A DNA stretch of 64,000 nucleotides from Candidatus Eiseniibacteriota bacterium (GTDB lineage Bacteria > Eisenbacteria > RBG-16-71-46 > DASYSL01). The DNA lies in contig JBOHUC010000098.1 of assembly GCA_050733935.1 (NCBI GenBank), positions 11,033 through 75,032 of the forward strand, in the 5' to 3' direction. Positions 16,028 through 49,165 of the stretch are shown piece after piece. Below the pieces are notes generated by a model, which saw only the letters and a program-made list of their open reading frames with translations, was not told the origin of the DNA and ran no database searches. The translations under genes and the position numbers were made by a program. The stretch's first letter is position 1. Every line of letters begins with the position of its first letter.

Positions 16028-17107
16028 ATGCGTATTCCCACCGAGCCCATTGGCAGCATTCCAAGACCTCACAAACTGATCGAGGCGTTCATGCACGCCG
16101 ACGGAACGAGCCCGTCGCTCGATCCGCTCTACGACCAGGCCATTCGGGAGACGATTCAGCAATTCGAAGCCACGGGCTCGCCGGTGATCACCGACGGGGA
16201 GCAGAAGAAGTACCACAACTTTTGGACGTACTGCGTGCAGGGCCTCGCGAACACCGTGCCCGACGGCTTCAGGCTTCCATTTGCGAACGGCCACGTGCGC
16301 CGGATGCCGCGACTGACCGGCGGGCCGTTCAAATTCCGCAGATACGCCGGCGGCTATCTGGACGTGGCCCAGAAGTACGCGAAGGTCGCCATCAAGCAGG
16401 CGGTCATCTCGCCTTCGGCCCTGAGCCTTCTGTATCCCGAGAAGGAGATCGCAGGCTACAGCCGCGAGGCGTTCCTCGACGACCTCCTGAGCGAGCACGA
16501 AAAGGAAGTTCGGACGTGTCTAAGGAAGGGTGCTCACAGCGTGCAGATCGACTTCACGGAAGGGCGCCTGGCCGTCAAGCTCGATCCCACGGGCCATCTC
16601 CTGCACAGCTTCATTGACCTCAACAACCTCGCGCTCGACCGATTCAGTGCGGAGGAACGGAAGAAGATCGGCGTGCACACGTGCCCGGGCGCGGATTGCG
16701 ATTCGACCCACAGCGCCGACGTCGACTACGCAGAGCTCCTGCCGAGCCTGTTCGATCTCAAGGTGGGGAACTTCTACATCGCGCTCGCGGGCGAGCCGGA
16801 TCGGGAGCGCGTCCTCAAGATCATCGGAGACCACTTGAAGCCCAACCAGCGCGTGTTCATCGGCGTCGTCGCGCCGATCGACCCGCGCATCGAAACACCG
16901 GAGGAAGTGCGCGATCGCACGCTCGAGGCGGCCCGCTACATTCCGGTCGCACAGCTCGGGACCACGGACGACTGCGGCTTCGCTCCATTCTCCGACGACA
17001 CATCAACGAGCCGTGCCACCGCGTTCGCCAAGATCCGGGCCCGCGTGCTGGGCACGGCGCTCGCCGCCGAGATCCTGGAGAAGGCGGAGATTCTGGAGAA
17101 GGGCTGA
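16028..17107 (+). CDS. Cobalamin-independent methionine synthase (MetE) C-terminal-domain-like protein
   Basis: 'MRIPTEPIGSIPRP', 'ITDGEQ', 'IQIDF', 'HTCPG...C' (zinc ligands), 'DCGFAPF'. Confidence 0.75.
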   Translation: MRIPTEPIGSIPRPHKLIEAFMHADGTSPSLDPLYDQAIRETIQQFEATGSPVITDGEQKKYHNFWTYCVQGLANTVPDGFRLPFANGHVRRMPRLTGGPFKFRRYAGGYLDVAQKYAKVAIKQAVISPSALSLLYPEKEIAGYSREAFLDDLLSEHEKEVRTCLRKGAHSVQIDFTEGRLAVKLDPTGHLLHSFIDLNNLALDRFSAEERKKIGVHTCPGADCDSTHSADVDYAELLPSLFDLKVGNFYIALAGEPDRERVLKIIGDHLKPNQRVFIGVVAPIDPRIETPEEVRDRTLEAARYIPVAQLGTTDDCGFAPFSDDTSTSRATAFAKIRARVLGTALAAEILEKAEILEKG

Positions 17108-18699
17108 TGGTCGATCGCGAAGACGACGACGAAGACGAAGACGCTCTCCTTCGCTCCGTCGCATTGCAGAACGCCCAGAGCGTGCGTCGCGCGCGCCAGC
17201 GCGCGGACGATGCGCTCCGCGATAGCGAACGCAGACTCCAGTTCGTTCTCGATTCCGTCCCGCAGAAGATCTTCACCGCCCGGCCGAACGGCGACCTGGA
17301 CTATGCGAATCCGCAGTGGACCGAGTTCATCGGGGTTCCGTTCGAGCGGCTTCAGGACCGCGGCTGGATGCAGTTCGTTCACCCGGAGGATGCCTCCGCA
17401 ACCATCCGGGCCTGGCGGCGATCCATCGATACGGGCGAACCCTTCCAGTTCGAGCTGCGCTTTCAGGATGCGGAGGGCCGGTATCGCTGGCACCTGAGCC
17501 GGGCCGTGCCGCTACGGGATGACGAGGGCGCGATCGTCATGTGGGTCGGCTCGAACACGGACGTGCACGAGGTGAAGGAAGCGGATCGTCGCAAGAACGA
17601 GTTCATAGCGATGCTCGCCCACGAGCTGCGCAATCCTCTCGCGCCCATCGGAAATGCGCTCAAGGTCCTGCGCAAGGCCCAGGGGAACCGCGAGGCGGTC
17701 GAATCCGCGACCGAGATGATGGAGCGCCAGGTCGCCCAGATGGTCCGCCTGGTGGACGATCTGCTCGATGCGAGCCGCGTGAGCCGGGGCAGGATCGAGC
17801 TTCGCCGGAGCCGGATCGATCTCCTCTCCGCGGTGAACGACGCCGTGGAAGCCTCGCGCGAGCTGTGCCGGAGCCTGAACCACGAGCTCGAGGTTTTGCT
17901 GCCCGACGGGCCGCTTCACCTCGAGGCCGACCCCCTTAGGCTCACGCAGGTGGTCGGCAATCTCCTCAACAATGCCTGCAAGTTCACGAACCAGGGCGGG
18001 CACATCCGGCTCACGGTCGCGCGCGAAGGGAACGAAGCGGTGATCCGGGTGCGGGACAACGGCATCGGCATTGCCGCCGATCAGAGGACCTGCATCTTCG
18101 ACATGTTCATGCAGGTCGACACGTCGCTCGAGCGCACGGTGAGCGGGCTCGGGATCGGGCTCACGCTCGTGAAAAACCTGGTCGAGCTGCACGGCGGAAC
18201 GGTGGAAGTGGAGAGCGGCGGCCCGGGACAGGGCAGCGAGTTCATCGTGCGGCTGCCCATTTCAGTGGACGCGGCGAAAGCGCCGGAATCGCCGGAAGCC
18301 GCGACGCCGGCTCCCAGGCCCGCGGTCGTGAAGGGCTGCAGAATTCTGGTCGTGGAGGACAACCAGGACTCGGCGGCGTCGCTCGCGATGTTCCTCAAGC
18401 TCTCGGGCAACGAGACGCTCATTGCCTGCGACGGCCTCGAGGCCGTCGAGTCGACGGAGGCGTTCAGGCCCGACGTCGTGCTGCTCGATCTCGGTCTGCC
18501 CCGGCTCAACGGCTACGAGGTGGCGCGCAAGATTCGCGAGCAGCCGTGGGGAAGGGACATCGTGCTCGTGGCCCTGACGGGCTGGGGACAGGACGCGGAC
18601 CGGGCCAAGTCTCAGGAAGCCGGATTCGACGCGCACCTCGTGAAGCCCGTGGACTTCGGCGCTCTCACAAAACTCCTCGCTTCGCGCACGCGCCCCTAG
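17107..18699 (+). CDS. Hybrid sensor histidine kinase / response regulator (PAS-HisKA-HATPase_c-REC)
   Basis: PAS 'PEDASATIRAWRRSIDTGEPFQFELRFQDAEGRYRW'; H-box 'MLAHELRNPLAPI'; N/G boxes 'LLNNACKFT' and 'DNGIGI'; receiver 'ILVVEDNQDSA...DVVLLDLGLP...LVKP'. Confidence 0.85.
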   Translation: MVDREDDDEDEDALLRSVALQNAQSVRRARQRADDALRDSERRLQFVLDSVPQKIFTARPNGDLDYANPQWTEFIGVPFERLQDRGWMQFVHPEDASATIRAWRRSIDTGEPFQFELRFQDAEGRYRWHLSRAVPLRDDEGAIVMWVGSNTDVHEVKEADRRKNEFIAMLAHELRNPLAPIGNALKVLRKAQGNREAVESATEMMERQVAQMVRLVDDLLDASRVSRGRIELRRSRIDLLSAVNDAVEASRELCRSLNHELEVLLPDGPLHLEADPLRLTQVVGNLLNNACKFTNQGGHIRLTVAREGNEAVIRVRDNGIGIAADQRTCIFDMFMQVDTSLERTVSGLGIGLTLVKNLVELHGGTVEVESGGPGQGSEFIVRLPISVDAAKAPESPEAATPAPRPAVVKGCRILVVEDNQDSAASLAMFLKLSGNETLIACDGLEAVESTEAFRPDVVLLDLGLPRLNGYEVARKIREQPWGRDIVLVALTGWGQDADRAKSQEAGFDAHLVKPVDFGALTKLLASRTRP

Positions 18700-18717
18700 A
18701 CGAATCCGAAGCTGTAA

Positions 18718-21700
18718 CTACCTCCACTCGCCTGCGCCGATGAACGCTCCCCAGATCGCGGGGTCGGGCTCGGCGCCGCGCCGGCGCAATCGCTCGAGCA
18801 GCGCGAGGCTTGCGGCCCGCACCGATTCGGCGGTCGACAGGCCGCGTGCGAACCGCGCCTCGTAGAGCGCCGCCATCCACTGGCGCGCGGCCGCATCTTC
18901 GACCGGCCAGAGGCTCATGACGAGGCTCCGGGCGCCCGCGATCGAGAACGCGCGGCGCAATCCGAACACGCCTTCGCCGGGCCTGACGTCTCCGACGCCG
19001 GTGTCGCACGCCGAGAGCACGACCCAGTCGACCGCGCGCAAATCAACCATCGAGATTTCTTCCGAGGTGAGGATGCCGTCGTCCTCGCCCGGCGCGGGCA
19101 GCGCGTGCCGGTTTGCGCCGGCGAACGCGAGCCCCGAGATCCGGAGCGGACTCTCCTCGCACTGATCACCCACGAAGAAGCCGTGCGTCGCGAGATGGAG
19201 GACGCGATGTCCCGGAGCGAGCGTCTTGAACTCTTCCTCGCCGGCCTGCGCTCCCAGGAGCAGGGTCGTCTTCGAGCCGTCGGTCGACGTCCGCCAGTGT
19301 TTCGCGATTTCGCGTCCTTCGAGCTCGGCGGCTTGCAAGGGCTCGAAGCGAGTTTCCGAGAGTCGCATGCACGTCGGTGGCGGGCCGCGGTACACGTGCG
19401 CGGACGCCCCGCCTGAACCCGGAGAGAGCGGCGAAGCGGTTGCGGCCGCGAGCAGCACGGCCTCCGCCGTGGCATCGAAGTCGGGTGCGGCCACGACGAA
19501 GAGGCCCGTTCCCGGCGAGCCGGCGTCCTTCCGCGGGACGAGGTCGCGCTCGGTCGACAACACGTGGAACAGCGGACCGCGCTCGATGAGGAAGGCGTCG
19601 GCGTCCGCGGGGAGCGCGGCGAAGTTCAAGAGGGCGAGCGCGCCGTCCGGGACCAGAAACACCATGTCCGCGCCCGCGACTCTGGAAGCGATCGGATCCC
19701 ACACAGCTTCACGCAGGCGATCGCCCGGCGATCCGGCGCGCACGCTTGCGCCCGCTTCGCGGTCGGCCGGTGTGCGGACGATCGCATTGCGCCACGCGCT
19801 GATCAACGAATCAATCGTGCTGCACGCGCCGAGCGGGACGATCTCCGGGGTTGCTTCTCCCGATGCGAGCACGAGGGCGGTATAGCGCAACTCCGATTCC
19901 CGCGGTTCGAGGCCGGATCGCTCGGGAACGTGGTGGTACACGGAGAACGCGACCAGGGCAGATCCCTGAGGCAACGCGGCGCGGACCTCCGAGAGTCCGA
20001 GGCGGCTCCGTTCCTGATCGCGGCGAAACGCGAGGCTTCGTTGAGCGAGCTCGCCCTCCAGGCGCTCGATCTCCTGCCGTGATGCGGCGATTGCGCTGTC
20101 GGACTTCACGTCTCCCGGCGTGGCTCTCAGGATCTGGGAGCCGAGCCGGCCGCGCGCGCGCGCGATGCGGCCGAGGAGTTCGCGCGTTTCGGAATCGGAC
20201 GCCGCCGCGATGACCCGCTGCCGTGTTGCCATCTCCTCGAGGATCTCGCCCCGATGGCGCAACACCGCGTCCCACAGGCGATCGCGCACTGTGGTCGGAA
20301 TGCGGGACGGAGGCAACGAGAGCGCGAGGTCGATCGCGAGCGGACGGCTGTCGGCGTAATCGAGCATGGGACGTTCCGCGAGCGTACGGGCGGTGAGCGC
20401 GAGATGTTCGCGCTCGCTCTCCGCAGCGTTGAGGGCAAGGTTGAGCGCCGCGGTTTCGTCACCCTGCGCGTGGCGCAATCGGGCTTCGCGAAACGTGGCC
20501 TCGATCCGGCCGGGATGGTCCGGTCGCGAGATCGCGGATCGAATGTGCTGTTCCTGCGCGAGGCTCGAATCGGCGCCGACGAGATTTCCGCGGCTCAATC
20601 GAATCTCGGTCAGGAATCCGAAGGCCGATGCCGCCGCGGGCATCGACGGGCCTTTCCGGTTCCAGTCGAGGCCGTGGGTGACGAGCGACTCCGCGCGGGC
20701 GAGCTCCCCGGTTCGCCACGCGAGGAGCCCCAGGTTTCCGGTGCTTTCGGCGACGCCGCCCGCATCGCCGATGCGCGTTCGGATCGCGAGCGCGCTGTCA
20801 TGGTAGGCACGCGCTTCGCCGTAGTTCCCCATGAAGTATTCGCTCAACCCAACGTTGTTCATGTAGCGGGCGACGTCGAGGTGATAGAGCCCGTAGGAGC
20901 GCTCCGCCAGGCGCACGCAGCGGCGGAAGACCTGGTTGCACCGGGGCGTGTCGTTGAGCAGTCCGAGCAGAGCGCCCTGCGTGTTGTAGATCCCGAGCAG
21001 ACGCGGATCATCGACGGGCAGGGACTCCTCGGCGATCGCGACCGCGCGCTCGATCTCACGAAGCCCCTCGGCATAGTCCCCGAGGCCACGCGAGATGTTC
21101 GCGATGCTCACGCGCGTCTTCGCCACCGGATAGGAGATGGGCCCGAAGGCCTGCTCGCGCAGGGCGAGACACTCCATGAGCAGAGTCCGGCACGAGTCGA
21201 CCTCCGACAGCACACCGAAGATGATGGCGGCGTTCTCGAGACAATCGGCGCGATCCGCGAGACTCATGGACGGACTTCGGCGCGCGATCGCGAGCGCGCG
21301 CGAAGCGTCTGCCGACGCGCCGAGCGGGTCTCCGAGGCTCAAACGAAGCATCGAATGTCGCGTCAGGACGCGGGCCATGTCGGGAGTGTCGGAGCCGAGC
21401 TCCACTTCCGCGACGGGCAGGAGGCGATCGCTGTACTTGCGAGCGAGCGTGGGGAAGGTCCGGCCGGCGAAGTTCGCGACTAGGCTGTCGAGGAGCACGA
21501 ACCTCTCGTGGCGTGCACGCGCCGAGTTGCCCTTGATCGTGCCCACGAGCGAGTCGGCGAGCCCGCCCGCCGCATCGGCCTGACCCTCGGTGAGGAGCCG
21601 ATCGATGCGCGCGAGCGCCGTGTCGCGGCCGGGATTGCCGGCGGTGGCCGAGGCTGCGATCGCGCTCGACGCCGGCACCATGCAGGCCAGCAGGAGAGCG

Positions 21701-21774
21701 AAGCCGATCGAACTACGGCGGCGGCTAACGAAGTTCGAAGACGTAGAGGGATTCCTCGATCGGCGAGCCGGCAT
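18718..21774 (-). CDS. Secreted TPR-repeat protein with a C-terminal CHAT (caspase-like) protease domain
   Basis: Signal peptide 'IGFALLLACMVPASSAIAASA'; multiple TPR-like repeats; CHAT His/Cys dyad regions 'HLATHGFF' and 'VVLSACDTGVGD'. No canonical start codon lies between the anti-sigma stop and the signal peptide, so the ATG at 21774, overlapping the anti-sigma gene by about 50 nt, is taken as the start. Confidence 0.75.
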   Translation of the reverse strand: MPARRSRNPSTSSNFVSRRRSSIGFALLLACMVPASSAIAASATAGNPGRDTALARIDRLLTEGQADAAGGLADSLVGTIKGNSARARHERFVLLDSLVANFAGRTFPTLARKYSDRLLPVAEVELGSDTPDMARVLTRHSMLRLSLGDPLGASADASRALAIARRSPSMSLADRADCLENAAIIFGVLSEVDSCRTLLMECLALREQAFGPISYPVAKTRVSIANISRGLGDYAEGLREIERAVAIAEESLPVDDPRLLGIYNTQGALLGLLNDTPRCNQVFRRCVRLAERSYGLYHLDVARYMNNVGLSEYFMGNYGEARAYHDSALAIRTRIGDAGGVAESTGNLGLLAWRTGELARAESLVTHGLDWNRKGPSMPAAASAFGFLTEIRLSRGNLVGADSSLAQEQHIRSAISRPDHPGRIEATFREARLRHAQGDETAALNLALNAAESEREHLALTARTLAERPMLDYADSRPLAIDLALSLPPSRIPTTVRDRLWDAVLRHRGEILEEMATRQRVIAAASDSETRELLGRIARARGRLGSQILRATPGDVKSDSAIAASRQEIERLEGELAQRSLAFRRDQERSRLGLSEVRAALPQGSALVAFSVYHHVPERSGLEPRESELRYTALVLASGEATPEIVPLGACSTIDSLISAWRNAIVRTPADREAGASVRAGSPGDRLREAVWDPIASRVAGADMVFLVPDGALALLNFAALPADADAFLIERGPLFHVLSTERDLVPRKDAGSPGTGLFVVAAPDFDATAEAVLLAAATASPLSPGSGGASAHVYRGPPPTCMRLSETRFEPLQAAELEGREIAKHWRTSTDGSKTTLLLGAQAGEEEFKTLAPGHRVLHLATHGFFVGDQCEESPLRISGLAFAGANRHALPAPGEDDGILTSEEISMVDLRAVDWVVLSACDTGVGDVRPGEGVFGLRRAFSIAGARSLVMSLWPVEDAAARQWMAALYEARFARGLSTAESVRAASLALLERLRRRGAEPDPAIWGAFIGAGEWR

Positions 21775-22711
21775 CCGCGGGACGCCGGATGCGGAGCGTG
21801 TAACGTCCCGGCGTAAGAGGAGCGTCGCCACGGTTCAGGACGATGGCACGGCGGACTCCGGCGGGGAACAGCGACTCGACCGACGTGCGAAGAGTGAACC
21901 GGTTGTTTCCTGCATCATCGAGAAGCGAAATCTCGAGCGGGCCTTCTTCTGCCACCGCGAGTGCGCGCGGAGGATCGAACGCGATCGACTGCGCGTCGCC
22001 TGTGAACGCATACGTTGGAGTCGGCGCCGCGGAGCTGCCGCGATAGCTCTCCGGCAACGCGAACGCGTCGGACGGCCGCGGGCCGAGCGCGAGAGAAAGC
22101 CCGCGCGCCGGATCTGACGACGAGGCGGGATGCGATGGATCGGGATGCGACGGGGCCGGAGGCGACGGAGCGGGTGTCGTCGTCCCGCCCGAAGGTCCCG
22201 CTGGGACCTGCACCGTAGGATTCGTCGGCGAGGGCGGGCGCGTTCGCAAGCCCTCGGAGTTGACGAGGATCAGGATGCCGGCCGCGGCCGCAAGCGCTCC
22301 CGCCGAGACGCCGTAAATCCAGTTCCACGCCGGACGTTTCATGGCAGCCGGGGGCGCCGCGTCGCCAACGAGCTCGAGTGCGGGCGGAAGCACCGCGCGC
22401 TGGCCGAGCGCCGTGAGCTCCTCGCGACACGACTCGCAGCGCTCGAGATGCCCCTGCACGAGCTCGCGCATGCCTCCGCGCAAGGTCGGAGCGGTGCGAT
22501 CCCAGGTCGCGATCAGCGTGCTCGGAAGATGATCGCCTCGCGAGCTCGCCTCGTCGTCCGGGCGCAGAGCTTCCGCCGCGGCTCCACAGGTCGGGCACTC
22601 CTCAATGTGCCGATCCATCACATCCTGCATCTCCGGATCGAGGATCCCGGCCGCCCAGGCACCGAGGAGCGCGCGAGCCCGCTCGTGCGGGAGCGTTGCG
22701 CCGCCGCTCAT
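21725..22711 (-). CDS. Anti-sigma factor (zf-HC2 type) with one transmembrane segment and a periplasmic domain
   Basis: 'HIEECPTCG...HLERCESC' zinc-finger, TM 'WNWIYGVSAGALAAAAGILILV', Pro/Ser-rich linker. ATGA overlap with the sigma-factor stop. Confidence 0.7.
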   Translation of the reverse strand: MSGGATLPHERARALLGAWAAGILDPEMQDVMDRHIEECPTCGAAAEALRPDDEASSRGDHLPSTLIATWDRTAPTLRGGMRELVQGHLERCESCREELTALGQRAVLPPALELVGDAAPPAAMKRPAWNWIYGVSAGALAAAAGILILVNSEGLRTRPPSPTNPTVQVPAGPSGGTTTPAPSPPAPSHPDPSHPASSSDPARGLSLALGPRPSDAFALPESYRGSSAAPTPTYAFTGDAQSIAFDPPRALAVAEEGPLEISLLDDAGNNRFTLRTSVESLFPAGVRRAIVLNRGDAPLTPGRYTLRIRRPADAGSPIEESLYVFELR

Positions 22712-23304
22712 GTCGCAAGGCCTTCGAAGTAATCGAGCAGATCGCGGAGCTCTCCGCGGTCGGCCCGCACGTAACTCAGGAACTGCTCGCGGCATCGCTG
22801 CCAGCGTTTCGCGAGCGAGTTCGGCCTTTCCTTGAGACATTCCGCCGCCTCCGCCCAGGATCGGCCGTCGAACACGAACTTCGCGGGATCGAGACAGCGC
22901 GGACTGTGGCGCGCGAACCACTCGCACACCGCGAAACGCCACAGCGCGAGCGCATGCGGATCCACGGTCGAGTCGGGCGGGCTCTCGAGCTCGACATCGT
23001 CCACGTCCACCGCCGTGCCCAGCGCTCCGGTCTCCGCCTTCCGGTGCCGGCAGAAGTCCACCCACGCCCGCCAAGCGATTCGCGACATGAGCGCTTCCAG
23101 GTTGTCTGCGGGGCCACGTCTCAGAGCCCGATCGAGCCGAATCCACGCGTCGGAGGCGATGTCCTCCAGGTCGTCTGCGTACCGACCGCGGGCGAGCGCA
23201 CGAATGCGTGAGCGCAGGAACTGCAACTCGGTGGACGAGTCGCGTGAAGCGCTGGGCGCGTTTGGCGCGTCGGCGGTCGGCAGGGAACCTGCTTCCGTCT
23301 CCAT
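22708..23304 (-). CDS. ECF (sigma-70 family group IV) RNA polymerase sigma factor
   Basis: Region 2-like 'DLEDIASDAWIRLDRAL' and region 4-like 'RSWAEAAECLKERPNSLAKRWQRCREQF'. Start at the internal Met (METEAG). Confidence 0.75.
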   Translation of the reverse strand: METEAGSLPTADAPNAPSASRDSSTELQFLRSRIRALARGRYADDLEDIASDAWIRLDRALRRGPADNLEALMSRIAWRAWVDFCRHRKAETGALGTAVDVDDVELESPPDSTVDPHALALWRFAVCEWFARHSPRCLDPAKFVFDGRSWAEAAECLKERPNSLAKRWQRCREQFLSYVRADRGELRDLLDYFEGLAT

Positions 23305-23475
23305 TTGTCGGCTCCGGAGGGCCTGTGTGACGGAGGAAAGAGCGCGGCAGGGAGCCGCGCCTTCCCGGTTCGGATACGCGTAAGCGACGACAGGGTAAGG
23401 GATTCTACAGCGTGCCCGGGGACGGGCCAAGCTCGATTTGAGGGAAGCACCCTCGTAACGTAGGCTTCGGAGCCT

Positions 23476-25605
23476 ATGTCCGCGCCCCTGGGTCTGGCCC
23501 GTAGAACCGTTCGACTGGTCGCGTACGACGAACGCTGGCCGGAACTGTTCGAGTCCGAGCGTCGTCTGCTGCAAGCGCACCTCGGCGATCACATCGTCGA
23601 GATGGCCCACATCGGAAGCACGGCGATCCCGGGACTCGACGCGAAACCGGTGCTCGATCTCATGGTCGCCGTGCCCTCACTGCGGATCCCGGCGCCCGTC
23701 TACTCGACGCTCGAAGGACTCGGCTACGAGCACCGTCCGCACGACGATGTGCCCGATCGTCTCTTCTTCGCCAAAGGCGGGGCGGAACAGCGAACGCATC
23801 ACCTGTCACTCTGTGAACGGGATTCGCACTTCTGGCGTGCGCACCTCTCGTTTCGGGAGCACCTGCGCCGCCATCCCTCCGTGGCCCACGACTACCTCGA
23901 GCTCAAGCGTGGTCTGGCCGCGCGATTCGCGTCTGATCGTCCCGCGTACACGACGGGGAAGGAGAGCTTCGTCAAGCGTGTGCTCGGGAGCCTTGGCGTA
24001 TTCGTTCTCGGGCTGATCGCTCCTGCGATCCTATCGCTGGCGCTCCTGGTTTTCGGCACGGCCCGGGCTCAAGGTCCCGGCCCACGCGTCGAGATCGAAT
24101 CCGGAATGCTCGAGGGCGCGGCCGCCGACAGCGTCGTCTCGTTCAAGGGAATCCCGTACGCCGCACAACCCGTGGGCGGCCTGCGCTGGCGGCCTCCACA
24201 GCCGATTCAGCCCTGGGCCGGCGTGCGCCAGGCGGGAGCGTTCGGACACGATTGCGTTCAGTTTCCAATTCCGGGCGATGCCGGTGCGAGCGGGGCGGAG
24301 CGCGGCGAAGATTGTCTCATGCTCAACGTGTGGCGGCCCGCTGCGATTCCCGAGGGAGAGAAACTCCCCGTCATGGTCTGGATCCATGGCGGGGGATTTC
24401 TGAACGGCGCCGCCTCGGTGCCGTTCTTCGACGGCAGCCGGTTCGCGCGCGAGGGAATCGTCTTCGTCAGCTTCAACTACCGCCTCGGCCGCCTGGGCTT
24501 CTTCGCGCATCCGGCACTCAGTGCGCGCTCCGAGAGGCCGCTTGCGAACTACGCGTTCATGGACCAGCTCGCTGCCCTGCAGTGGGTGCAACGCAACGTT
24601 CACGCATTTGGCGGTGATCCGCGTCAGGTCACGATCGTCGGCGAGTCGGCCGGCGGTATCTCGGTCGTGCATCTGCTCATGTGGGACAAAGCGCAGGGGC
24701 TCTTTCAGCGTGCGGCCGTCCTCTCGGGCTCCGGACGCAGGTACATGCCCCAGTTCCGGAAGCTCAAGGAAGCGACCGGCCCACTGCCCTCGGCCGAGGC
24801 CGCCGGTGTGGCCTTTGCCGAGAGCGTCGGCGTCCTCGCCACGGGCGAAGCAGGCCTCGAGGCCTTGCGCAAGTTGCCGGCCGAGCGCGTGAACGGGGAC
24901 ATGAGCATGCTCGCGCTCCTTCAGATGTCGCCGACCTACGTCGGCGGACCCGTGAACGACGGCGAGATCGTCACCGCCAAACCCGAAGAGAACATCCGCA
25001 AGAATGAATTCGCAAAGGTGCCGCTTCTGATCGGCACGACCGGCGCCGATCTCCCGGCCGACTTTCCTCCCGACCGAACGCGACCGCTCGACTTCTTCGG
25101 TCCTGATTCCGCGCGTGCGTCCAAGCTCTACGATCCCGACGGAACGATGCCTCCCGACCAGCTCTCCGTCCTCATCGCAGCCGACATGACGATGCACGAG
25201 CCGGCGCGGTTCCTGGCGGAGCGGATGGCTGCTACAGGAGAGCCCACCTGGATCTATCGCTTCGATTACGTTCCCGAATTTCTGCGCGGAAAGATGACCC
25301 ATGCTCCGCACGCCGGAGAGCTCGGCTTCCTGTTCGATCAGCTCGGTGCCCGTTACGGAAAAGGCGCCACCGCGCGCGACCGGGAGATGGCGAAGACCTT
25401 CCACGGATACTTCGTCCGCTTCGTGAAGCACGGCGATCCGAGCGGGCGGGGACTTCCCGCATGGCCGAAGGTCGATCCGTCGCGCGATGATCTCATGATG
25501 TTCGGCGCCGACGGGAAGGCGCGCCTCGACCAGGACCCGTGGGGCGAGCGCCTCCGGCTGGTCACGCGTGCGCAGGAGCGCCGGGGGGCCCCAGCAACGC
25601 GGTAG
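23476..25605 (+). CDS. In-frame fusion of a GrpB/UPF0157 domain (aa 1-175) and a type-B carboxylesterase (para-nitrobenzyl-esterase-like), with an internal signal-peptide-like segment
   Basis: N-terminus matches the GrpB family up to 'KESFVKRVLG'. A hydrophobic 'VFVLGLIAPAILSLALLVFGTARAQG' follows, then esterase motifs 'EDCLMLNVW', 'WIHGGGF', 'GESAGG'. No stop separates the two. An internal GTG at 23980 is an alternative esterase start. Confidence 0.7.
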   Translation: MSAPLGLARRTVRLVAYDERWPELFESERRLLQAHLGDHIVEMAHIGSTAIPGLDAKPVLDLMVAVPSLRIPAPVYSTLEGLGYEHRPHDDVPDRLFFAKGGAEQRTHHLSLCERDSHFWRAHLSFREHLRRHPSVAHDYLELKRGLAARFASDRPAYTTGKESFVKRVLGSLGVFVLGLIAPAILSLALLVFGTARAQGPGPRVEIESGMLEGAAADSVVSFKGIPYAAQPVGGLRWRPPQPIQPWAGVRQAGAFGHDCVQFPIPGDAGASGAERGEDCLMLNVWRPAAIPEGEKLPVMVWIHGGGFLNGAASVPFFDGSRFAREGIVFVSFNYRLGRLGFFAHPALSARSERPLANYAFMDQLAALQWVQRNVHAFGGDPRQVTIVGESAGGISVVHLLMWDKAQGLFQRAAVLSGSGRRYMPQFRKLKEATGPLPSAEAAGVAFAESVGVLATGEAGLEALRKLPAERVNGDMSMLALLQMSPTYVGGPVNDGEIVTAKPEENIRKNEFAKVPLLIGTTGADLPADFPPDRTRPLDFFGPDSARASKLYDPDGTMPPDQLSVLIAADMTMHEPARFLAERMAATGEPTWIYRFDYVPEFLRGKMTHAPHAGELGFLFDQLGARYGKGATARDREMAKTFHGYFVRFVKHGDPSGRGLPAWPKVDPSRDDLMMFGADGKARLDQDPWGERLRLVTRAQERRGAPATR

Positions 25606-25671: not shown

Positions 25672-27960
25672 ATGCGGGATCGTAAGCCTTTGACCGAACG
25701 GCGGCGGGCGGAGAACACCCTCCAGCGCAGCGAGCGCGATCTTTTCGAACTTTTTGAACACGCAAACGTGGGCCTGCATTGGGCGGCCCCGGACGGAACG
25801 ATTCTCCGCGCGAACGAAACCGAGCTCGCGCTCCTCGGTTGTGCGCGCGACGAATACGTCGGGCGGAACATCGCGGAATTCCACGTCGATCCACTCGTAA
25901 TCCAGGAAATTCTCGAGCGACTGGAACGCGGGGAGACGCTGCGTGAGCACCCGGCGCAGATGTGCCGCAAGGACGGATCGATCCGCGACGTCCTGATCAG
26001 CGCGAACATGCTGTTCGAGGGCGGGAAGCTCATCCACATCCGGCGCTTGACGCGGGACGTGACCGACGCCAGGAAAGCGCACGAGACCCGCGAGCTCTTG
26101 AGCTCGATCGTCCAGTCGTCGGACGATGCGATCGTCAGCAAGACGCTCGAGGGAATCGTCCTCACGTGGAATTCGGGCGCCCAGCGGCTGTTCGGATACA
26201 AGCCGGAGGAGATCGTCGGCCGGCCGATCACCCTCATCATTCCGGAAGAGCTGCACGAGGAGGAGCGCTCGATCCTTGCGCGGCTCAGGCGGGGCGAGCG
26301 CATCGACCACTACGAAACCGTCCGCGTGTCGAAGGCGGGCCGGCGAATCGATGTTTCGCTCACGGTCTCGCCCATTCGGGATCCTTCGGGTCGGATCATC
26401 GGCGCGTCCAAGGTGGCGCGCGACATCAGCTGTCGAAAGGCGGCGGCGGAGCAGATTCGCGAGAGCGAAACGCGCTTTCGCGCGTTCGCCGATAGCGCGC
26501 CGGTCCTCATCTGGCTCAACGATCCCACGGGTTGCATCTTCGTGAATCGGGCGTATCTCGACTTCGTGGGCGTTCCGCACCTCGTGGACGTCCGGGGCTA
26601 CAACTGGGCCGAGTTCATTCATCCCGAAGATCGCGACGCCTACGTGGCGCTGTACCTCGATTGTCAGGAGCGGCGCGTCCCGTTCACGGCCGAGTTCCGG
26701 TTTCGACGCCATGACGGTCAGTACCGTTGGATGCACTCGTCCGGCGTGGCGCGGATCTCGAGCTCGGGAGCCTATCTCGGGTACACCGGGTGCACGATGG
26801 ACATCCATGAGGTTCGCATGGCCTCCGAGGCTCTGCACGAGGCCGACCGCCTCAAGAACGAATTCCTGGCGACGCTCGCGCACGAGCTTCGCAATCCGCT
26901 CGCTCCGCTTGCGAACATGCTCGAGGTCATGAAGCGCGCCGATCACGACTCGGAATTGCTGGTCCAGGCCCGGGGGACGATGGAGAGGCAGCTCGCAAGC
27001 CTGGTGCGGCTCGTCGACGACCTGATCGATCTGAGTCGGATCACGCGCAACAAGCTCGAGCTGCGGAGGGAGCGGGTCGATCTCGCGGACGTGATCCGGC
27101 AGGCCGTCGAGACGTGCACCCCGCTCCTCGAGGGATTCCATCACGAGCTCACCGTGACTCTCCCTCCGGAGACGATCTTCGTGCATGCCGACCGCGAACG
27201 CCTGGCGCAGGTGTTCACGAATCTCCTCAACAATGCGTGCAAGTACACCGAGCCCGAGGGCCGATTGAGCCTCTCGGCGACACGACGGGGAATGGAAGTC
27301 GTCGTGAGCGTGAAGGACAACGGCATCGGGATCCCGAAGGAGAAGCTCGCGGGCGTCTTCGACATGTTCACGCAGGTGGACCAGACGTTCGAGCGCACGC
27401 AGGGGGGTCTCGGCGTCGGTCTCTCGCTCGTCCGGCGGCTCGTGGAAATGCACGACGGGACCGTGTCGGCCACGAGCGAGGGTTCGGGACGCGGGAGTGA
27501 GTTCGTCGTGCGGCTTCCTCTCGAGATCCCGGCCCTGCCGGCGGCAGAGGCGCCCCGTGTCCTCGTTGAGAAGCGGGCGGCTCCCCGGCGAATTCTGGTC
27601 GTCGACGACAATCAGGATTCGGCCGCTTCGCTGGCCCTGTTGCTGAGCGTCACCGGCGAGGAGACGCTCATGGCGCATGACGGCATGGCGGCCGTCGAGG
27701 CCGCCGAGCAGTTTCGTCCCGGAGTCGTGCTGCTGGATCTGGGACTCCCCAGGCTCAATGGATTCGACGCCGCGCGCAGCATTCGCGAACAGCCATGGGG
27801 GAAGGACATGATCCTGATCGCACTCACCGGATGGGGCCAGGAGGAGGATCGCCGGAAGTCGCAGGCCGCGGGATTCGACGCTCATCTCGTGAAACCCGTC
27901 GACTACGATGCGCTCATGAAGCTCCTCGCCTCATTGCCCGCGGCGACTCAGGCGACCTGA
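25672..27960 (+). CDS. Hybrid sensor histidine kinase / response regulator (3xPAS-HisKA-HATPase_c-REC)
   Basis: Three PAS-like segments; H-box 'LAHELRNPLAPL'; 'LLNNACKYT', 'DNGIGI'; receiver 'ILVVDDNQDSA...LVKPVDYDALMKLLAS'. Its C-terminal 200 aa are a close paralog of those in 17107..18699. Confidence 0.85.
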   Translation: MRDRKPLTERRRAENTLQRSERDLFELFEHANVGLHWAAPDGTILRANETELALLGCARDEYVGRNIAEFHVDPLVIQEILERLERGETLREHPAQMCRKDGSIRDVLISANMLFEGGKLIHIRRLTRDVTDARKAHETRELLSSIVQSSDDAIVSKTLEGIVLTWNSGAQRLFGYKPEEIVGRPITLIIPEELHEEERSILARLRRGERIDHYETVRVSKAGRRIDVSLTVSPIRDPSGRIIGASKVARDISCRKAAAEQIRESETRFRAFADSAPVLIWLNDPTGCIFVNRAYLDFVGVPHLVDVRGYNWAEFIHPEDRDAYVALYLDCQERRVPFTAEFRFRRHDGQYRWMHSSGVARISSSGAYLGYTGCTMDIHEVRMASEALHEADRLKNEFLATLAHELRNPLAPLANMLEVMKRADHDSELLVQARGTMERQLASLVRLVDDLIDLSRITRNKLELRRERVDLADVIRQAVETCTPLLEGFHHELTVTLPPETIFVHADRERLAQVFTNLLNNACKYTEPEGRLSLSATRRGMEVVVSVKDNGIGIPKEKLAGVFDMFTQVDQTFERTQGGLGVGLSLVRRLVEMHDGTVSATSEGSGRGSEFVVRLPLEIPALPAAEAPRVLVEKRAAPRRILVVDDNQDSAASLALLLSVTGEETLMAHDGMAAVEAAEQFRPGVVLLDLGLPRLNGFDAARSIREQPWGKDMILIALTGWGQEEDRRKSQAAGFDAHLVKPVDYDALMKLLASLPAATQAT

Positions 27961-45106: not shown

Positions 45107-48100
45107 TTGCTGCGACGTTTCGTGCTTCTCCTGTTCGCGCTCGTCGTGCCGGCCGCAGTCGCAAGCGCCGTCACGCTCCCGCCTGATTTCTTGGTCGAGA
45201 ACGCCACGCCCGGCATCGGGTGGACGCTTCCGGTTGAAGTCGCATTCCTGCCCGACGGACGTTGGCTCGTGGCCGAGAAGCGCGGCCGCGTCTGGGTGGT
45301 GCGAAACGGCGTGCGTCACCCGGTTCCGATGTGGGAGGGGGAGAGCGAGGTCCTGAACCATCACGATCGCGGGCTCCTCGGGCTCGCCGTCGATCCCCAC
45401 TTCGACACGAACCGTTTCATCTACCTCCTCTACACGGTCGATCCCGACTCGAACGGCGACGACTCGTTCGGGCCCGCGTTCGGGCGCCTGACGCGCTACC
45501 AGGTGAGCGCGAGCGATTCGAACGTGGTCGACCCCGCAACGCGCACGGTTCTCCTCGGGCAAACGTGGGCCGAAGGTCCGCTCGCCGCCTCCCCCTCGCA
45601 CACGATCGGCTGTCTGCGCTTTGGTACCGACGGGTCGCTCCTCGTCGGCACGGGCGACGGCGCGAACTACTCCGATGCCCCCGACGACGGAGGCGACTAT
45701 CCGGACGCGTTCCTGCCGGGCCGCACCGATCCGGTCGAAGACATCGGCGGGCTTCGATCGCAGTACCTGGGGAGCCTGGCCGGGAAGATCCTCCGCATCG
45801 ATCCTGCGACCGGGCACGGTTACCCGAGCAATCCGTTCTTCGACGGCGATCCGATGTCGGTGCGGTCGCGCGTGTGGCTCTACGGCGTGCGCAATCCGTT
45901 CCGCTTCGCGGTGGAGCCCGGCTCGGGCAGCACGAATCCCGCCGACGGTGCTCCGGGGGTGATCCACTTAGGCGACGTCGGATGGGCGCTGTGGGAGGAG
46001 CTCGACATCGCGACCACCGGGGGGAAGAACTTCGGGTGGCCGTGCTATGAGGGTCCGATCCGGCAGAACAAGTACTGGGCGCCTCTCTCCACGCCGGCGC
46101 ACTGTCCGTGCGACTCGATCGCACTTTCGTTCCATGATCCGGCGGACACGACCCGTCCGGTGTCGACCTGGTACCACTACGAACCGGAGCCGGGGATTCC
46201 CGGCGGATTCGAGGGGCAGACCGCGCTCGGCGGGACGTTCTACACCGGACGCCGTTATCCGCCGCAGTACCGGAATCGCCTCTTCATGGGGGACTTCGGA
46301 TCGAGCTGGATCAAGGTGCTGGTCACCGATTCGCTCTATCGCCTGAACGCCGTTCTCCCGTTCGCCGATCAGGCGGACTTCCCGGTCGAGATCGCGGCCG
46401 AGCCGATCTCCGGCGACATCCTCTACATATCGATCAGCCACAACGAGATTCGCCGTATCCGCTACGTGGGGCCGGTGGACAACGTGTCGCCGGTCGCCGT
46501 CGCGGGCGGCGCGCCGTCGTTCGGAGGTGCTCCGGTCGCGGTCGAGTTCTCGAGCGCGGGGACGAGTGACGCGGAGAACGACAGCCTGAGCTTCGCGTGG
46601 CTGTTCGGGGACGGCGACGGATCGAGCGATCCCCATCCGACCCACGTCTACGAGTCGCCCGGCGTCTTTGCGGCCGTGCTCACGGTGACGGATGCGTTCG
46701 GCGGACTCGACCGCGACACGGTGATCGTGACCGTCGTCTCCGGGGAGGGTTTCCCGACGAAGGTCGTGCTCGACAGCTTCGATCGCGCGGACGAGCCGCT
46801 CGGACCGCCGTGGACGGACGACCTTACTGCGCTCGCGACTGTCGCAAACCGCCTTTCGGTCGGCGCCGCCTCGGGCGGAAACGCGAGTGCCCTCTGGGAC
46901 GACTCGATGTTCGGTCCCGTGCAGGAGGCGTTCGTCACCCTGCACGAGCTTCCCGGCGGAACGGGTGCGATCGAGCTCGTGCTGCAGGCGCAGGGAGTCG
47001 AGAGCGGTGACGGATACCTGGGCGTCCGCTACGAGCCGTCGAACGATGCGATCCAGATCCGAACGAGCGAACCGGGGTTCGACCCGGTCGTGCGCGCGAC
47101 GTTCGAGGCCGTGGGCCTGGTCGCAGGCGACCGGCTCGGTGCGCGCACCGGGACTGACGGCCTCGTGGGGGTCTACCGGAACGACGAGCTCCTTGGCGCT
47201 GCGTCCGTCGAGGGCTTCTGGCCGCACGCCGACGAACCGGGACGCATCGGACTCCGCTTCGAGAAAGCGACCGGAGCCGTGGTCGATGATTTCGGCGGAG
47301 GCGGCTCGCTCTTCGTTCCGAACACGCCGCCCGTGGCCGCGATTCTCACGCCGCCCGACAGCTCGTTCTTCGCGGAAGGGGACACCGTGCGCTTGATCGG
47401 CTCCGGTGTCGATGCGTTGACGTCTGCCGACAGCCTCGACTTCATCTGGGAAGTCGACACTCATCACAACGAGCACACGCATCCTTCGTCCTTCACGCTC
47501 GAAGGCGACAGTGCGTTCTTCCTCGGGGAGTCGCACGACGATGGGAGCGGCGTGTACCTCCACGTCCGGTTCATCGTGGCCGACTCGGCGGGACTCGCCG
47601 ACACGGCGTCGGTCGATCTCTTTCCGGAGGCGGACCTCCGGCCGACGATCGTCTCGGCCCTGCCGGAGTCGGTCGCGGCGGGGGACTCGCTGTTCGTCAC
47701 GCTCCGGCTTGCGAACGACGGCCGTATGCTCGCGCATCGCTCGCGCTGGCGGCTCGATCTCGGCGGCGTGCTGCTCGCCGAGGGCGACACGACCGTGAGC
47801 GGCGGGGACAGCGTCTCGATCGCGCTTGCGATCGGAAACCTGCCTGCGATCGCTCCCGGCGCGCGGGCCCTTCGACTGGTGGCCGATGCGCTCGGAGTCG
47901 TCGTCGAAACCGACGAGACCGACAACGAGAGCGCGCTCTTTCTCTATGTTCGGACGCCGCCGGATGCGGAGCCGCCGAATCTCACGCTCCTCTTCCCGAA
48001 CGGGGGCGAGGCGTGGCCGCTCGGAGCCGTGCACAGCGTCCTGTGGAGCGCCTCGGACAACACGGGGGTCACGGCCGTCACGGTCGAGCTCTCGCGCGAC

Positions 48101-49165
48101 GGGGGAAACACGTACGCGCTCCTCGACTCGGGCCTTGCTCATACCGGCGAGCTCGAGCTCGTCGTCACCGGCCCGGCCAGCGATTCGGTCCTCGTGCGCG
48201 TCACGGCGCGCGATGCCGCGGGCAACACGAGCATCGACGTGAGCGACGTGTACTTCGCGATCGTGGTCGACGAGAAGACCCCTGCGGTCTTTCTGCTCTC
48301 GCCGAACGGCGGTGAAGCGTGGCCCGTGGGATTCGCGCGGACGATTCGCTGGACCGCCGAGGACCACGTGGGCGTCACGGCGATCGATCTCTTCGTCTCC
48401 TATGACGACGGCGAGTCCTATGCCGAGATCGCCGAGGGGTTGCCCGATACGGGCGAGCACGATTGGGTCGTGGCCGGGCCGCTCACGGCCTCTGCCCGGA
48501 TCCAGATCATTGCCCGCGACGCAGTCGGGAATGCGGCGGCGGACGCGAGCGACGCGGCGTTCTCGCTCGTCGACGGAACCCCGCCTGCGTTCACGCTCGG
48601 GCCGACCGCCACGCCGAACGAGGCCGACGCGGCGATCGCGTGGCAAACCGATGAATTGGCCACGGGTTGCGTGCGCTGGGGACTCACCGGCTCGTTCGGC
48701 GACTCGACCGAGACGGCCTCCCCGAGCCTCGGCCAGGCCGTGAATCTGACCGGGCTCACCCCCGAAATGACGTATCATTATTGCGTCGTTGTCCGCGATA
48801 CGGCCGGCAACGTGGCCGTCGCCGCCCCGGACTCATTTACAACCCTCGCGAGCACCGTCGCCGCCGACCCGGCGCCGCATACGCTCGCGCTTTCGAACCC
48901 CTATCCGATCCCGGCCCATGGACACGTCTCGCTGGTTCTCGACCTCCCGCAGCGTTCGACCGTGGACTTCGCCGTCTACGACGTGCGGGGCCGTCGTGTC
49001 TGGTCGAGCGCGCGTTACTCCCGCGAGCCCGGGCGCTGGTTGCTGGAATGGCAGGGCCTCGACGACCGTGGCGCCCGCGTTCCGGCCGGTGTCTATCTCG
49101 CGTGCGTGACCGCAAACGGGCGGCTCTTGAGCCGGCGGATCACGCTCCTTTCCGGGGAGCGTTAG
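45107..49165 (+). CDS. Giant secreted protein: glucose/sorbosone-dehydrogenase-like beta-propeller, PKD domain, CARDB/FN3-like Ig repeats, and T9SS/FlgD-Ig C-terminal domain
   Basis: TTG start and signal peptide 'MLRRFVLLLFALVVPAAVASA'. GSDH-like 'AFLPDGRWLVAEKRGRVWVV...HHDRGLLGLAVDP'. PKD 'FGDGDGSSDPHPTHVYESPGVFAAVLTVTD'. C-terminal domain 'LSNPYPIPAHGHVSLVLDLP...FAVYDVRGRRVW...GVYLACVTANGRLLSRRITLL'. Confidence 0.8.
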   Translation: MLRRFVLLLFALVVPAAVASAVTLPPDFLVENATPGIGWTLPVEVAFLPDGRWLVAEKRGRVWVVRNGVRHPVPMWEGESEVLNHHDRGLLGLAVDPHFDTNRFIYLLYTVDPDSNGDDSFGPAFGRLTRYQVSASDSNVVDPATRTVLLGQTWAEGPLAASPSHTIGCLRFGTDGSLLVGTGDGANYSDAPDDGGDYPDAFLPGRTDPVEDIGGLRSQYLGSLAGKILRIDPATGHGYPSNPFFDGDPMSVRSRVWLYGVRNPFRFAVEPGSGSTNPADGAPGVIHLGDVGWALWEELDIATTGGKNFGWPCYEGPIRQNKYWAPLSTPAHCPCDSIALSFHDPADTTRPVSTWYHYEPEPGIPGGFEGQTALGGTFYTGRRYPPQYRNRLFMGDFGSSWIKVLVTDSLYRLNAVLPFADQADFPVEIAAEPISGDILYISISHNEIRRIRYVGPVDNVSPVAVAGGAPSFGGAPVAVEFSSAGTSDAENDSLSFAWLFGDGDGSSDPHPTHVYESPGVFAAVLTVTDAFGGLDRDTVIVTVVSGEGFPTKVVLDSFDRADEPLGPPWTDDLTALATVANRLSVGAASGGNASALWDDSMFGPVQEAFVTLHELPGGTGAIELVLQAQGVESGDGYLGVRYEPSNDAIQIRTSEPGFDPVVRATFEAVGLVAGDRLGARTGTDGLVGVYRNDELLGAASVEGFWPHADEPGRIGLRFEKATGAVVDDFGGGGSLFVPNTPPVAAILTPPDSSFFAEGDTVRLIGSGVDALTSADSLDFIWEVDTHHNEHTHPSSFTLEGDSAFFLGESHDDGSGVYLHVRFIVADSAGLADTASVDLFPEADLRPTIVSALPESVAAGDSLFVTLRLANDGRMLAHRSRWRLDLGGVLLAEGDTTVSGGDSVSIALAIGNLPAIAPGARALRLVADALGVVVETDETDNESALFLYVRTPPDAEPPNLTLLFPNGGEAWPLGAVHSVLWSASDNTGVTAVTVELSRDGGNTYALLDSGLAHTGELELVVTGPASDSVLVRVTARDAAGNTSIDVSDVYFAIVVDEKTPAVFLLSPNGGEAWPVGFARTIRWTAEDHVGVTAIDLFVSYDDGESYAEIAEGLPDTGEHDWVVAGPLTASARIQIIARDAVGNAAADASDAAFSLVDGTPPAFTLGPTATPNEADAAIAWQTDELATGCVRWGLTGSFGDSTETASPSLGQAVNLTGLTPEMTYHYCVVVRDTAGNVAVAAPDSFTTLASTVAADPAPHTLALSNPYPIPAHGHVSLVLDLPQRSTVDFAVYDVRGRRVWSSARYSREPGRWLLEWQGLDDRGARVPAGVYLACVTANGRLLSRRITLLSGER

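Follow-up and report, generated by a model that had tools for sequence, protein, structure and literature searches.

The sensing of signals by membrane anti-sigma factors, and the protease that makes the first cut in them, are known for only a handful of the systems governed by extracytoplasmic function (ECF) sigma factors. The closest known system to the one described here is DdvS-DdvA of Myxococcus xanthus (PDB 8ROT/8RW5), in which an ECF sigma is paired with a single-pass zinc anti-sigma, the periplasmic part of which consists of a scaffold and a TPR-CHAT domain with a His/Cys dyad (PMC11506125). DdvA (2024) is the one studied case of an anti-sigma with a caspase-like TPR-CHAT domain; fused DdvA-like proteins have been reported solely from Myxococcota and one Comamonas, and only a subset of the DdvA-like pairs are found near defence genes (PMC11506125). 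A TPR-CHAT protein is also part of the type III-E craspase, which comprises Cas7-11, Csx29 (TPR-CHAT), Csx30 and CASP-sigma, and in which Csx29 cleaves Csx30 (PMC10028731). In the RseA/DegS/RseP control of sigma-E, and in kindred pathways of regulated intramembrane proteolysis, the anti-sigma is cut outside the membrane by a signal-activated protease and then within it (PMC10028731, PMC10202637), and the gene neighbourhood of the ECF54 sigmas holds CHAT, carboxypeptidase and subtilase genes (PMC8999054, PMC7826278). The present analysis deals with a cassette of three genes, for a sigma factor, an anti-sigma factor and a separate TPR-CHAT protein, in 64,000 nucleotides (nt) of DNA from an uncultured soil bacterium of Candidatus Eiseniibacteriota (assembly GCA_050733935.1, contig JBOHUC010000098.1, positions 11,033 to 75,032), here called the window and numbered from its first letter.

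The explanation favoured here, held tentatively and with somewhat less than even confidence, is that the three genes make up one signalling module, a split DdvS-DdvA switch in which the TPR-CHAT protein would be a trans-acting periplasmic sensor and site-1 protease. In the resting state the anti-sigma would keep the sigma at the membrane, and the exported TPR-CHAT protein would reside in the periplasm, probably docked on a rare C-terminal domain of the anti-sigma or on a linear motif in front of it. A signal sensed by the TPR array would turn on the CHAT domain, which would then make the site-1 cut in the exposed region of the anti-sigma, with the position behind Arg224, invariant within an ExxR motif, as the most plausible one, and an RseP-type intramembrane protease and cytoplasmic proteases would complete the degradation and free the sigma. 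The initial annotation of this DNA had offered two roles for the protease, cleaver of the anti-sigma or regulated output of the operon; the first is favoured over the second because of the conserved gene overlaps, the fused precedent in DdvA (PMC11506125) and the invariant Arg motif in the linker. The existence of TPR-CHAT and anti-sigma as one fused protein in the DdvA lineage argues for a physical interaction of the parts when they are separate. Judged by its sequence, the locus has three peculiarities: its sigma belongs to a rare family that lacks annotation, the zinc units of its anti-sigma come in tandem, and the rare domain at the C-terminus of that anti-sigma goes with an invariant ExxR motif.

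The cassette runs head to tail on the minus strand in the order sigma, anti-sigma, TPR-CHAT (Table 1), with an ATGA overlap between the first two genes that can be read directly from the sequence, and the G+C content of the window is 64-70% throughout. The initial annotation had placed all three genes on this strand and had described the same ATGA overlap, both of which were borne out; the overlap of about 50 nt that it gave for the second junction proved to be exactly 50 nt, and its domain calls were right by Pfam and by profile comparison. The length of 1019 amino acids (aa) that it gave for the TPR-CHAT protein, with an implied start at 21777, was off by one codon, the ATG at 21774 giving 1018 aa. 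The public record of this metagenome-assembled genome shortens two of the three cassette genes. In the NCBI record the sigma is a 126-aa hypothetical protein with its start inside sigma2, and the TPR-CHAT protein starts at Met32, with a length of 987 aa, whereby the signal-peptide-like segment is lost. Family conservation supports the longer forms of both proteins, and the public annotation thus misses the sigma gene and the signal peptide at this locus.

The recurrence of the sigma/anti-sigma/CHAT synteny in other genomes, raised with the initial annotation, was borne out, and the generic adjacency to unrelated genes that would be the alternative was not seen. Those contigs with the window's sigma family that are long enough (from loci L007, L009/L010 and L012) all carry the triad, in which the sigma is followed by a tandem-zinc anti-sigma of 318-338 aa and then by a TPR-CHAT protein of about 1030 aa. 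The flanks vary by locus, being secreted FlgD_ig/Por_Secre_tail proteins, unknown genes or, in the window, an esterase. A 4-nt overlap of sigma and anti-sigma genes is common to the window, L007, L009 and L012, and the overlap of anti-sigma and CHAT genes is 47 nt in L012, 20 nt in L009 and 4 nt in L006. The TPR-CHAT protein is encoded in a frame separate from that of the anti-sigma also in L006, L007, L009 and L012. In L006 a canonical ECF sigma and a single-zinc anti-sigma with the same C-terminal domain are joined by a TPR-CHAT protein 35% identical to that of the window, and L019 has the same triad with another sigma, on a frameshifted long-read contig.

A broader view came from a scan of 185,579 species-representative genomes with the TPR-CHAT family, in which 591 of the first 600 pattern matches were confirmed and the best 80 loci were kept. 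About half of these 80 contain sigma-like frames by a profile that was built iteratively; among 42 sigma candidates, Pfam recognized Sigma70_r2/r4_2 in 27-28 and Sigma70_ECF in 12. A sigma gene lies on the same strand and no more than 2.5 kb upstream of the TPR-CHAT gene in 22 of the best 80 loci, and the region upstream of the CHAT gene has 1.08 sigmas per 10 kb as against 0.43 in the other flanks. Between the two genes there is a single-pass protein of 218-373 aa in 19 of the 22 loci and a Ser/Thr kinase in one. About half of the 19 single-pass middle proteins have an H/CxxxCxxC zinc motif (L032-L099), and the Pfam threshold for zf-HC2 was reached by five of nine that were sampled. Middle proteins of the zinc type (e.g., L032, L048, L099) often have periplasmic TPR repeats, and those that are zinc-less yet zf-HC2-like (e.g., L056, L069) share the motif YLLGSLPE...LDELS. 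Since the triad is found with varied sigmas and varied middle proteins, what recurs is the pairing of a membrane anti-sigma module with a TPR-CHAT protein that is predicted to be secreted, and it extends across sigma groups. The host labels among the best 80 include Acidobacteriota (several classes), Gemmatimonas, Limnocylindrales, Verrucomicrobiia, Ignavibacteriales and others.

Other arrangements around TPR-CHAT genes were also encountered in the survey. Close relatives (35-37% identity) have a Peptidase_C11 (clostripain-like) gene directly upstream in L003:119-6031, in the P0004 contig and probably in L005:2-4802, which places two clan-CD cysteine proteases side by side; one such case also has a divergently transcribed sigma and a 197-aa gene. 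A recurrent order in L081:426-6257, L004 and the P0009 contig is a Sigma70_ECF-type sigma, then, where the anti-sigma would stand, a transmembrane Ser/Thr kinase with DUF4384, and last TPR-CHAT. The reverse order is seen in L028, L030, L035 and L075, where the sigma gene is immediately downstream of TPR-CHAT on the same strand with gaps of 11-106 nt, and in L024, L027, L036, L043, L045 and L067 a sigma gene is upstream on the opposite strand.

The TPR-CHAT protein matches Pfam CHAT with an E value of 1e-55 and TPR_12, in several repeats, at 8.6e-26. The initial annotation had staked its case on a His/Cys dyad in this domain, and the dyad is present on proper alignment: the two motifs can be read directly as LHLATHGFF (H864) and VVLSACDTG (C923), both residues are invariant in the ten closest sequences, and in an alignment of 29 sequences H864 is invariant and C923 at least 90% conserved. 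These features place it among the CHAT/clan CD caspase-fold proteins with an intact dyad, and proteolytic activity is predicted. The AlphaFold2 (AF2) model is confident (predicted local distance difference test, pLDDT, 84.3; predicted template modelling score, pTM, 0.82) and shows the TPR region as an unbroken run of helix pairs. The best Foldseek matches of the model were separase (7e-15), Csx29 (2.3e-14) and DdvA (1.1e-11), by which the modelled fold is like that of all three. No match of the CHAT domain to solved CHAT structures was found by sequence at E <=1, with a CHAT-only profile included (the full-length profile, run against PDB, was swamped by TPR matches), so the link to those structures is a structural one only.

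At its N-terminus this protein reads MPARRSRNPSTSSNFVSRRRSSIGFALLLACMVPASSAIA, with AS following the predicted cut; basic residues come first in it, then a hydrophobic core and then an Ala-x-Ala site. The sole strongly hydrophobic N-terminal stretch spans aa 21-45 and ends in AIA. All close homologues begin in a similar way, in some of them (L007 included) in codons that precede the Met of the gene call, and hydropathy and this conservation agree with the signal peptide that had been read from the sequence at the outset, as a prediction. The TPR-CHAT protein is on these grounds probably exported. A lipoprotein reading of the same N-terminus (LLAC) was considered and rejected because the Cys is not conserved in homologues.

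The anti-sigma has a zf-HC2 match in Pfam (E 4.4e-10), and the HxxxCxxC motif in its N-terminal helical domain puts it in class I of the zinc-binding anti-sigmas (zf-HC2/ZAS), with binding of zinc and of sigma predicted. The motif is present twice. The two units are homologous to each other (hhalign probability 95.4%, E 1.9e-8), and all eight of their residues (HHCC twice) are invariant across 11 members of the family. AF2 places three helices at aa 9-49 with pLDDT 77-89, the model being usable for local helices and strands only. A single-sequence PDB search with the anti-sigma gave nothing useful. The zinc units precede the one membrane helix, and the predicted topology is N-in and C-out, as usual for the class; by hydropathy, 178 aa then follow outside the membrane, close to the periplasmic part of about 180 aa that had been estimated earlier. 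Tandem zinc units are found throughout the sigma's own family and in L019, and not in L006 or in the other anti-sigma types beside TPR-CHAT genes.

In the external part of the anti-sigma, the poorly conserved linker that follows the membrane helix leads into a linear motif (Table 1) in which, over 11 sequences, A208, L209 and R224 do not vary and the conservation of E221 is at least 90%. Separase has ExxR as its consensus site of cleavage, according to a quotation in PMC11506125. Two other types of anti-sigma encoded beside TPR-CHAT genes likewise keep an invariant Arg, with a hydrophobic residue before it and Gly/Ser/Ala after it, at the equivalent place directly after the variable linker. 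A conserved linear motif within a variable, probably disordered segment has the look expected of a protease site or a TPR docking site. The domain that ends the protein is rare. When 1.84 billion representative proteins were searched exhaustively, it turned up in 12 clusters, each time as the C-terminal end of a protein of 318-350 aa except in two shorter entries, and a direct hidden Markov model search among the collected loci confined it to its own clade and L019. Homology of this domain with that of the Blastocatellia-type anti-sigmas was considered and rejected, as hhalign gave a P value of 8.9e-4 and a probability of just 23%, a hint only.

The sigma factor is divergent. Its score for Pfam Sigma70_r2 is 26.4 bits against a cutoff of 24; the Pfam region-4 models do not match the protein, TIGR02937 scores under its cutoff, and the NCBIfam type III-E sigma model falls below its cutoff with E 0.016. 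A single-sequence PDB search retrieved no sigma, and a PDB search with the family profile retrieved ECF sigmas exclusively (SigE, SigR, SigJ), weakly, at E 0.03-0.7. When the family profile was compared with a profile of 13 canonical ECF sigmas, hhalign gave 96.6% probability and E 4.8e-10 over aa 21-182, that is, sigma2 and sigma4 including the helix-turn-helix of region 4.2. Because of this alignment across both regions the protein is accepted, from its sequence family, as an ECF-type sigma of a small unclassified family; its 198 aa hold sigma2 and sigma4 without regions 1.1 or 3, and its gene runs into that of a zf-HC2 protein, both as in ECF (group IV) sigmas. The family has 16 relatives with 53-66% identity, conservation over the full 198 aa and the signature NSLAKRWQRC. 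No confirmed relative emerged from a pattern scan of the species-representative genomes with the family profile, and a metagenome scan with the family gave five short contigs only.

An ECF-type -35/-10 pair upstream of 23304 had been thought worth looking for in the initial annotation, and no consistent pair of this kind (GGAAC/CGTC) was found upstream of the sigma gene. The sole promoter-like site in 18400-23700, where shuffled sequences gave a mean of 0.3, is instead sigma-70-like (TTGGCC-17-TAGAAT) and is conserved in relatives: both hexamers (TTGnnn-16/18-TAnnnT) recur in four other loci of the sigma family despite about 67% G+C, and the truncated L017 keeps the -10 element only. No internal promoter or terminator was found within the cassette, and the search for promoters in 18400-23700 gave no sign of autoregulation of the operon by its sigma. 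Because the sole promoter is conserved and of housekeeping type, the cassette looks to be constitutively expressed, like a standby sensor. The leader of about 100 nt between this promoter and the sigma gene (23305-23401, with equivalents in L007, L012, L015, L016 and L017) contains short conserved blocks, namely GAAC just past the -10 element, TACG some 18 nt beyond it and TGTCA(C/T) about 27 nt ahead of the start codon, with no consistent spacing. The partly conserved GAAC...TACG block 3' of the -10 element was also tried as an ECF promoter and not called, because its spacing is inconsistent (12-21 nt). No consistent fold emerged when conserved RNA structure was sought in the leader, with z-scores of -2.1 to +1.65 over six loci.

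Several points weigh against the split-switch explanation. Cleavage, binding and export are each read from sequence and synteny, and in DdvA itself the signal-induced clipping of the linker by CHAT, followed by RseP cleavage, is a proposal of its authors (PMC11506125). Many relatives of the TPR-CHAT protein have no sigma nearby, which means that the protease family is not dedicated to a sigma role. The AF2 model of the anti-sigma is poor, with a mean pLDDT of 51.6 from a three-sequence alignment, and the invariant Arg motif could equally be structural, as the first strand of the C-terminal domain. The signal peptide depends on hydropathy and conservation, with the public start lying downstream and removing the segment, and neither an ECF-type promoter nor a regulon was found for the sigma.

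These points leave room for other explanations of the same genes. That the TPR-CHAT protein is the output, a secreted protease for envelope remodelling, attack or defence that is co-transcribed with or induced by the sigma/anti-sigma pair, is considered unlikely, although several things speak for it: ECF operons often adjoin their main targets, regulators and targets in such neighbourhoods are hard to tell apart (PMC7826278), and the TPR-CHAT relatives that stand beside Peptidase_C11 genes without any sigma indicate that the family has sigma-independent functions. An induced output does not, however, sit well with a CHAT gene that begins 20-50 nt before the anti-sigma gene ends and lacks a separate promoter; the CHAT protein is therefore made along with the inhibitor, before any induction. 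Nor would it account for a sole conserved promoter that is housekeeping-like, for an association that persists across sigma groups and anti-sigma types, or for the two parts being one fused protein in DdvA (PMC11506125).

An equally unlikely alternative keeps the TPR-CHAT protein in the periplasm as a partner that does not cut the anti-sigma, a co-sensor or protector such as RseB is for RseA, with its protease activity aimed elsewhere or at itself. The strict conservation of the His/Cys dyad and of the motifs around it, which a purely binding role would not require, tells against such a partner, whereas TPR arrays are protein-binding scaffolds, the rare family-specific C-terminal domain of the anti-sigma occurs only with this cassette, and the CHAT site of DdvA is incomplete at rest (PMC11506125). 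There is little likelihood that the TPR-CHAT protein is cytoplasmic, as the shorter public start would have it, and cuts the tandem zinc-binding domains as craspase cuts Csx30: in-frame hydrophobic N-termini after basic residues are conserved in all close homologues, in L007 upstream of the annotated Met, the window contains no Cas7-11 or Csx30, and TPR-CHAT is periplasmic in the fused relative DdvA (PMC11506125). A fortuitous adjacency of three genes with unrelated functions, for which one can cite only how common ECF sigma genes and TPR-CHAT genes generally are in these phyla, is hardly credible and is refuted by the synteny survey (triad with varied flanks, same-strand upstream sigma in 22 of 80 loci, and the higher upstream sigma density).

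The split-switch explanation can be extended beyond this locus, at a further cost in confidence. It is possible, and on present evidence rather doubtful, that a secreted separase-like TPR-CHAT protein is a dedicated, operon-encoded site-1 protease and sensor for membrane anti-sigmas in general, cutting after a conserved Arg in the linker. If so, the triad would be a widespread and so far uncharacterised class of ECF signalling in Acidobacteriota, Eisenbacteria, Gemmatimonadota and other phyla. The survey suggests that the pairing of TPR-CHAT with an ECF sigma and anti-sigma is common in poorly studied soil phyla, and no description of the split triad of sigma, anti-sigma and secreted TPR-CHAT protein was found in the full text of open-access papers. 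As the protease and its presumed substrate are separate proteins here, the proposed cleavage is directly testable in trans.

Table 1. Genes of the cassette and predicted features of their products and promoter (positions in the window).
Feature	Positions	Strand	Remarks
Sigma gene, 198 aa	22708..23304	-	divergent ECF-type, sigma2 and sigma4 only
Anti-sigma gene, 328 aa	21725..22711	-	single-pass; start codon overlaps sigma stop (ATGA)
TPR-CHAT gene, 1018 aa, caspase-fold	18718..21774	-	start 50 nt inside anti-sigma gene
Promoter, sigma-70-like, TTGGCC-17 nt-TAGAAT	23402..23430	-	about 98 nt upstream of sigma start codon
Anti-sigma, first zinc-binding unit, H9...H35-x3-C39-x2-C42	22586..22687	-	4 residues invariant in 11 sequences
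Anti-sigma, second (duplicated) zinc-binding unit, H61...H88-x3-C92-x2-C95	22427..22531	-	residues invariant in 11 sequences
Anti-sigma, transmembrane helix, aa 132-150, IYGVSAGALAAAAGILILV	22262..22318	-	sole hydrophobic window, 19-residue Kyte-Doolittle mean 2.15
Anti-sigma, Pro/Ser/Thr-rich variable linker, aa 151-205	22097..22261	-	from composition; poor conservation; AF2 pLDDT <50
Anti-sigma, linear motif SLALGP-x8-LPESYRG, aa 206-225 (E221-x-x-R224)	22037..22096	-	candidate docking or cleavage site
Anti-sigma, rare beta-rich C-terminal extracytoplasmic domain, aa 226-328, PGRY...YxFExR	21728..22036	-	beta strands in low-confidence AF2 model
TPR-CHAT, predicted signal peptide, aa 1-40	21655..21774	-	basic n-region, h-region IGFALLLACMVPA, AIA before predicted cut
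TPR-CHAT, TPR/helical-repeat region, aa 48-590	20005..21633	-	Pfam TPR_12, TPR_10, TPR_MalT; kinesin-light-chain TPR matches
TPR-CHAT, CHAT protease domain, aa 600-1018	18721..19977	-	H864 at 19183-19185, C923 at 19006-19008

The neighbours of the cassette are those that the initial annotation named, a convergent hybrid histidine kinase on the plus strand that ends at 18699 and a divergent gene for a GrpB-carboxylesterase fusion that starts at 23476. The latter (23476-25605) is one frame of 709 aa with an N-terminal GrpB domain, a type-B carboxylesterase and a hydrophobic segment in between. The kinase has a paralogue on the other side of the cassette, so that two hybrid histidine kinases (17101-18699 and 25672-27960, both on the plus strand and both PAS-HisKA-HATPase-receiver) flank it, with 50% identity over 509 aa. 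Further along the window, at 45107-52953, there are two very large tandem paralogues of about 1350 and 1430 aa as called, with overlapping reading-frame calls, which have GSDH (glucose/sorbosone dehydrogenase-like), PKD, CARDB, Big_7 and C-terminal FlgD_ig domains; secreted proteins with FlgD_ig tails also flank the cassette in L007 and L019. On the minus strand at 57044-61179, two adjoining genes of about 700 codons each encode HlyD-type membrane-fusion domains, in one protein together with an N-terminal GAF domain, which is an unusual combination.

The setting of cyanobacterial signalling or programmed death in which the initial annotation had placed the CHAT protein is not the closest context; both DdvS-DdvA and the Csx29-Csx30-sigma part of craspase are closer. 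Craspase is the precedent for a TPR-CHAT protein that relieves the inhibition of an ECF-like sigma (PMC10028731). It works in the cytoplasm, however, bound to Cas7-11 and switched on by RNA, and has in Csx30 an inhibitor that does not belong to the zf-HC2 membrane proteins, whereas the TPR-CHAT protein of the window appears, from its N-terminus, to be exported; none of the craspase partners (Cas7-11, Csx30/Csx31) is encoded in the window. The RseA pathway shares with the proposed switch a membrane anti-sigma with an external domain and two successive cuts, but its site-1 protease is the serine protease DegS, which is encoded elsewhere, whereas the candidate in the window would be a caspase-fold cysteine protease from the same operon. 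The ECF54 group resembles the cassette in that CHAT proteins beside ECF sigmas, with possible proteolytic regulation, had been noted there earlier by bioinformatics (PMC8999054, PMC7826278). That group is actinobacterial and was described without any anti-sigma, in contrast to the canonical membrane zf-HC2 anti-sigma that lies between the sigma and CHAT genes of the window. Separase, in the separase-securin system, is an intracellular eukaryotic enzyme of the cell cycle, and the resemblance of the cleavage motif may be taken as a lead only.

The comparison thus returns to DdvS-DdvA, from which the cassette differs in several respects. In DdvA, the anti-sigma itself ends in the TPR-CHAT part, which works as one half of a dimer, whereas in the window it comes from a separate gene and has its own predicted signal peptide; the window's anti-sigma ends at 21725 with its own stop codon, and so lacks the fusion by which the DdvA family is recognised. 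It also has a rare C-terminal domain of its own and two zinc-binding units instead of one, and the sequence of the window's TPR-CHAT protein has no detectable similarity to DdvA. No CBASS (cyclic oligonucleotide-based antiphage signalling system) or CRISPR defence island was found beside the cassette by Pfam scans, and PADLOC gave no match; around it lie genes for histidine kinases, an esterase and metabolic functions. In contrast to the narrow range of fused DdvA, the split form is seen in Acidobacteriota, Eisenbacteria, Gemmatimonadota, Chloroflexota, Verrucomicrobiota and Ignavibacteria, so that the pairing of TPR-CHAT with an anti-sigma is far more widespread than the fused form implies. 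Reasoning by analogy, the split triad plausibly works like DdvA despite lacking the fusion that defines it, and, if the triad does form a signalling class of its own, the myxobacterial DdvA would be its fused special case.

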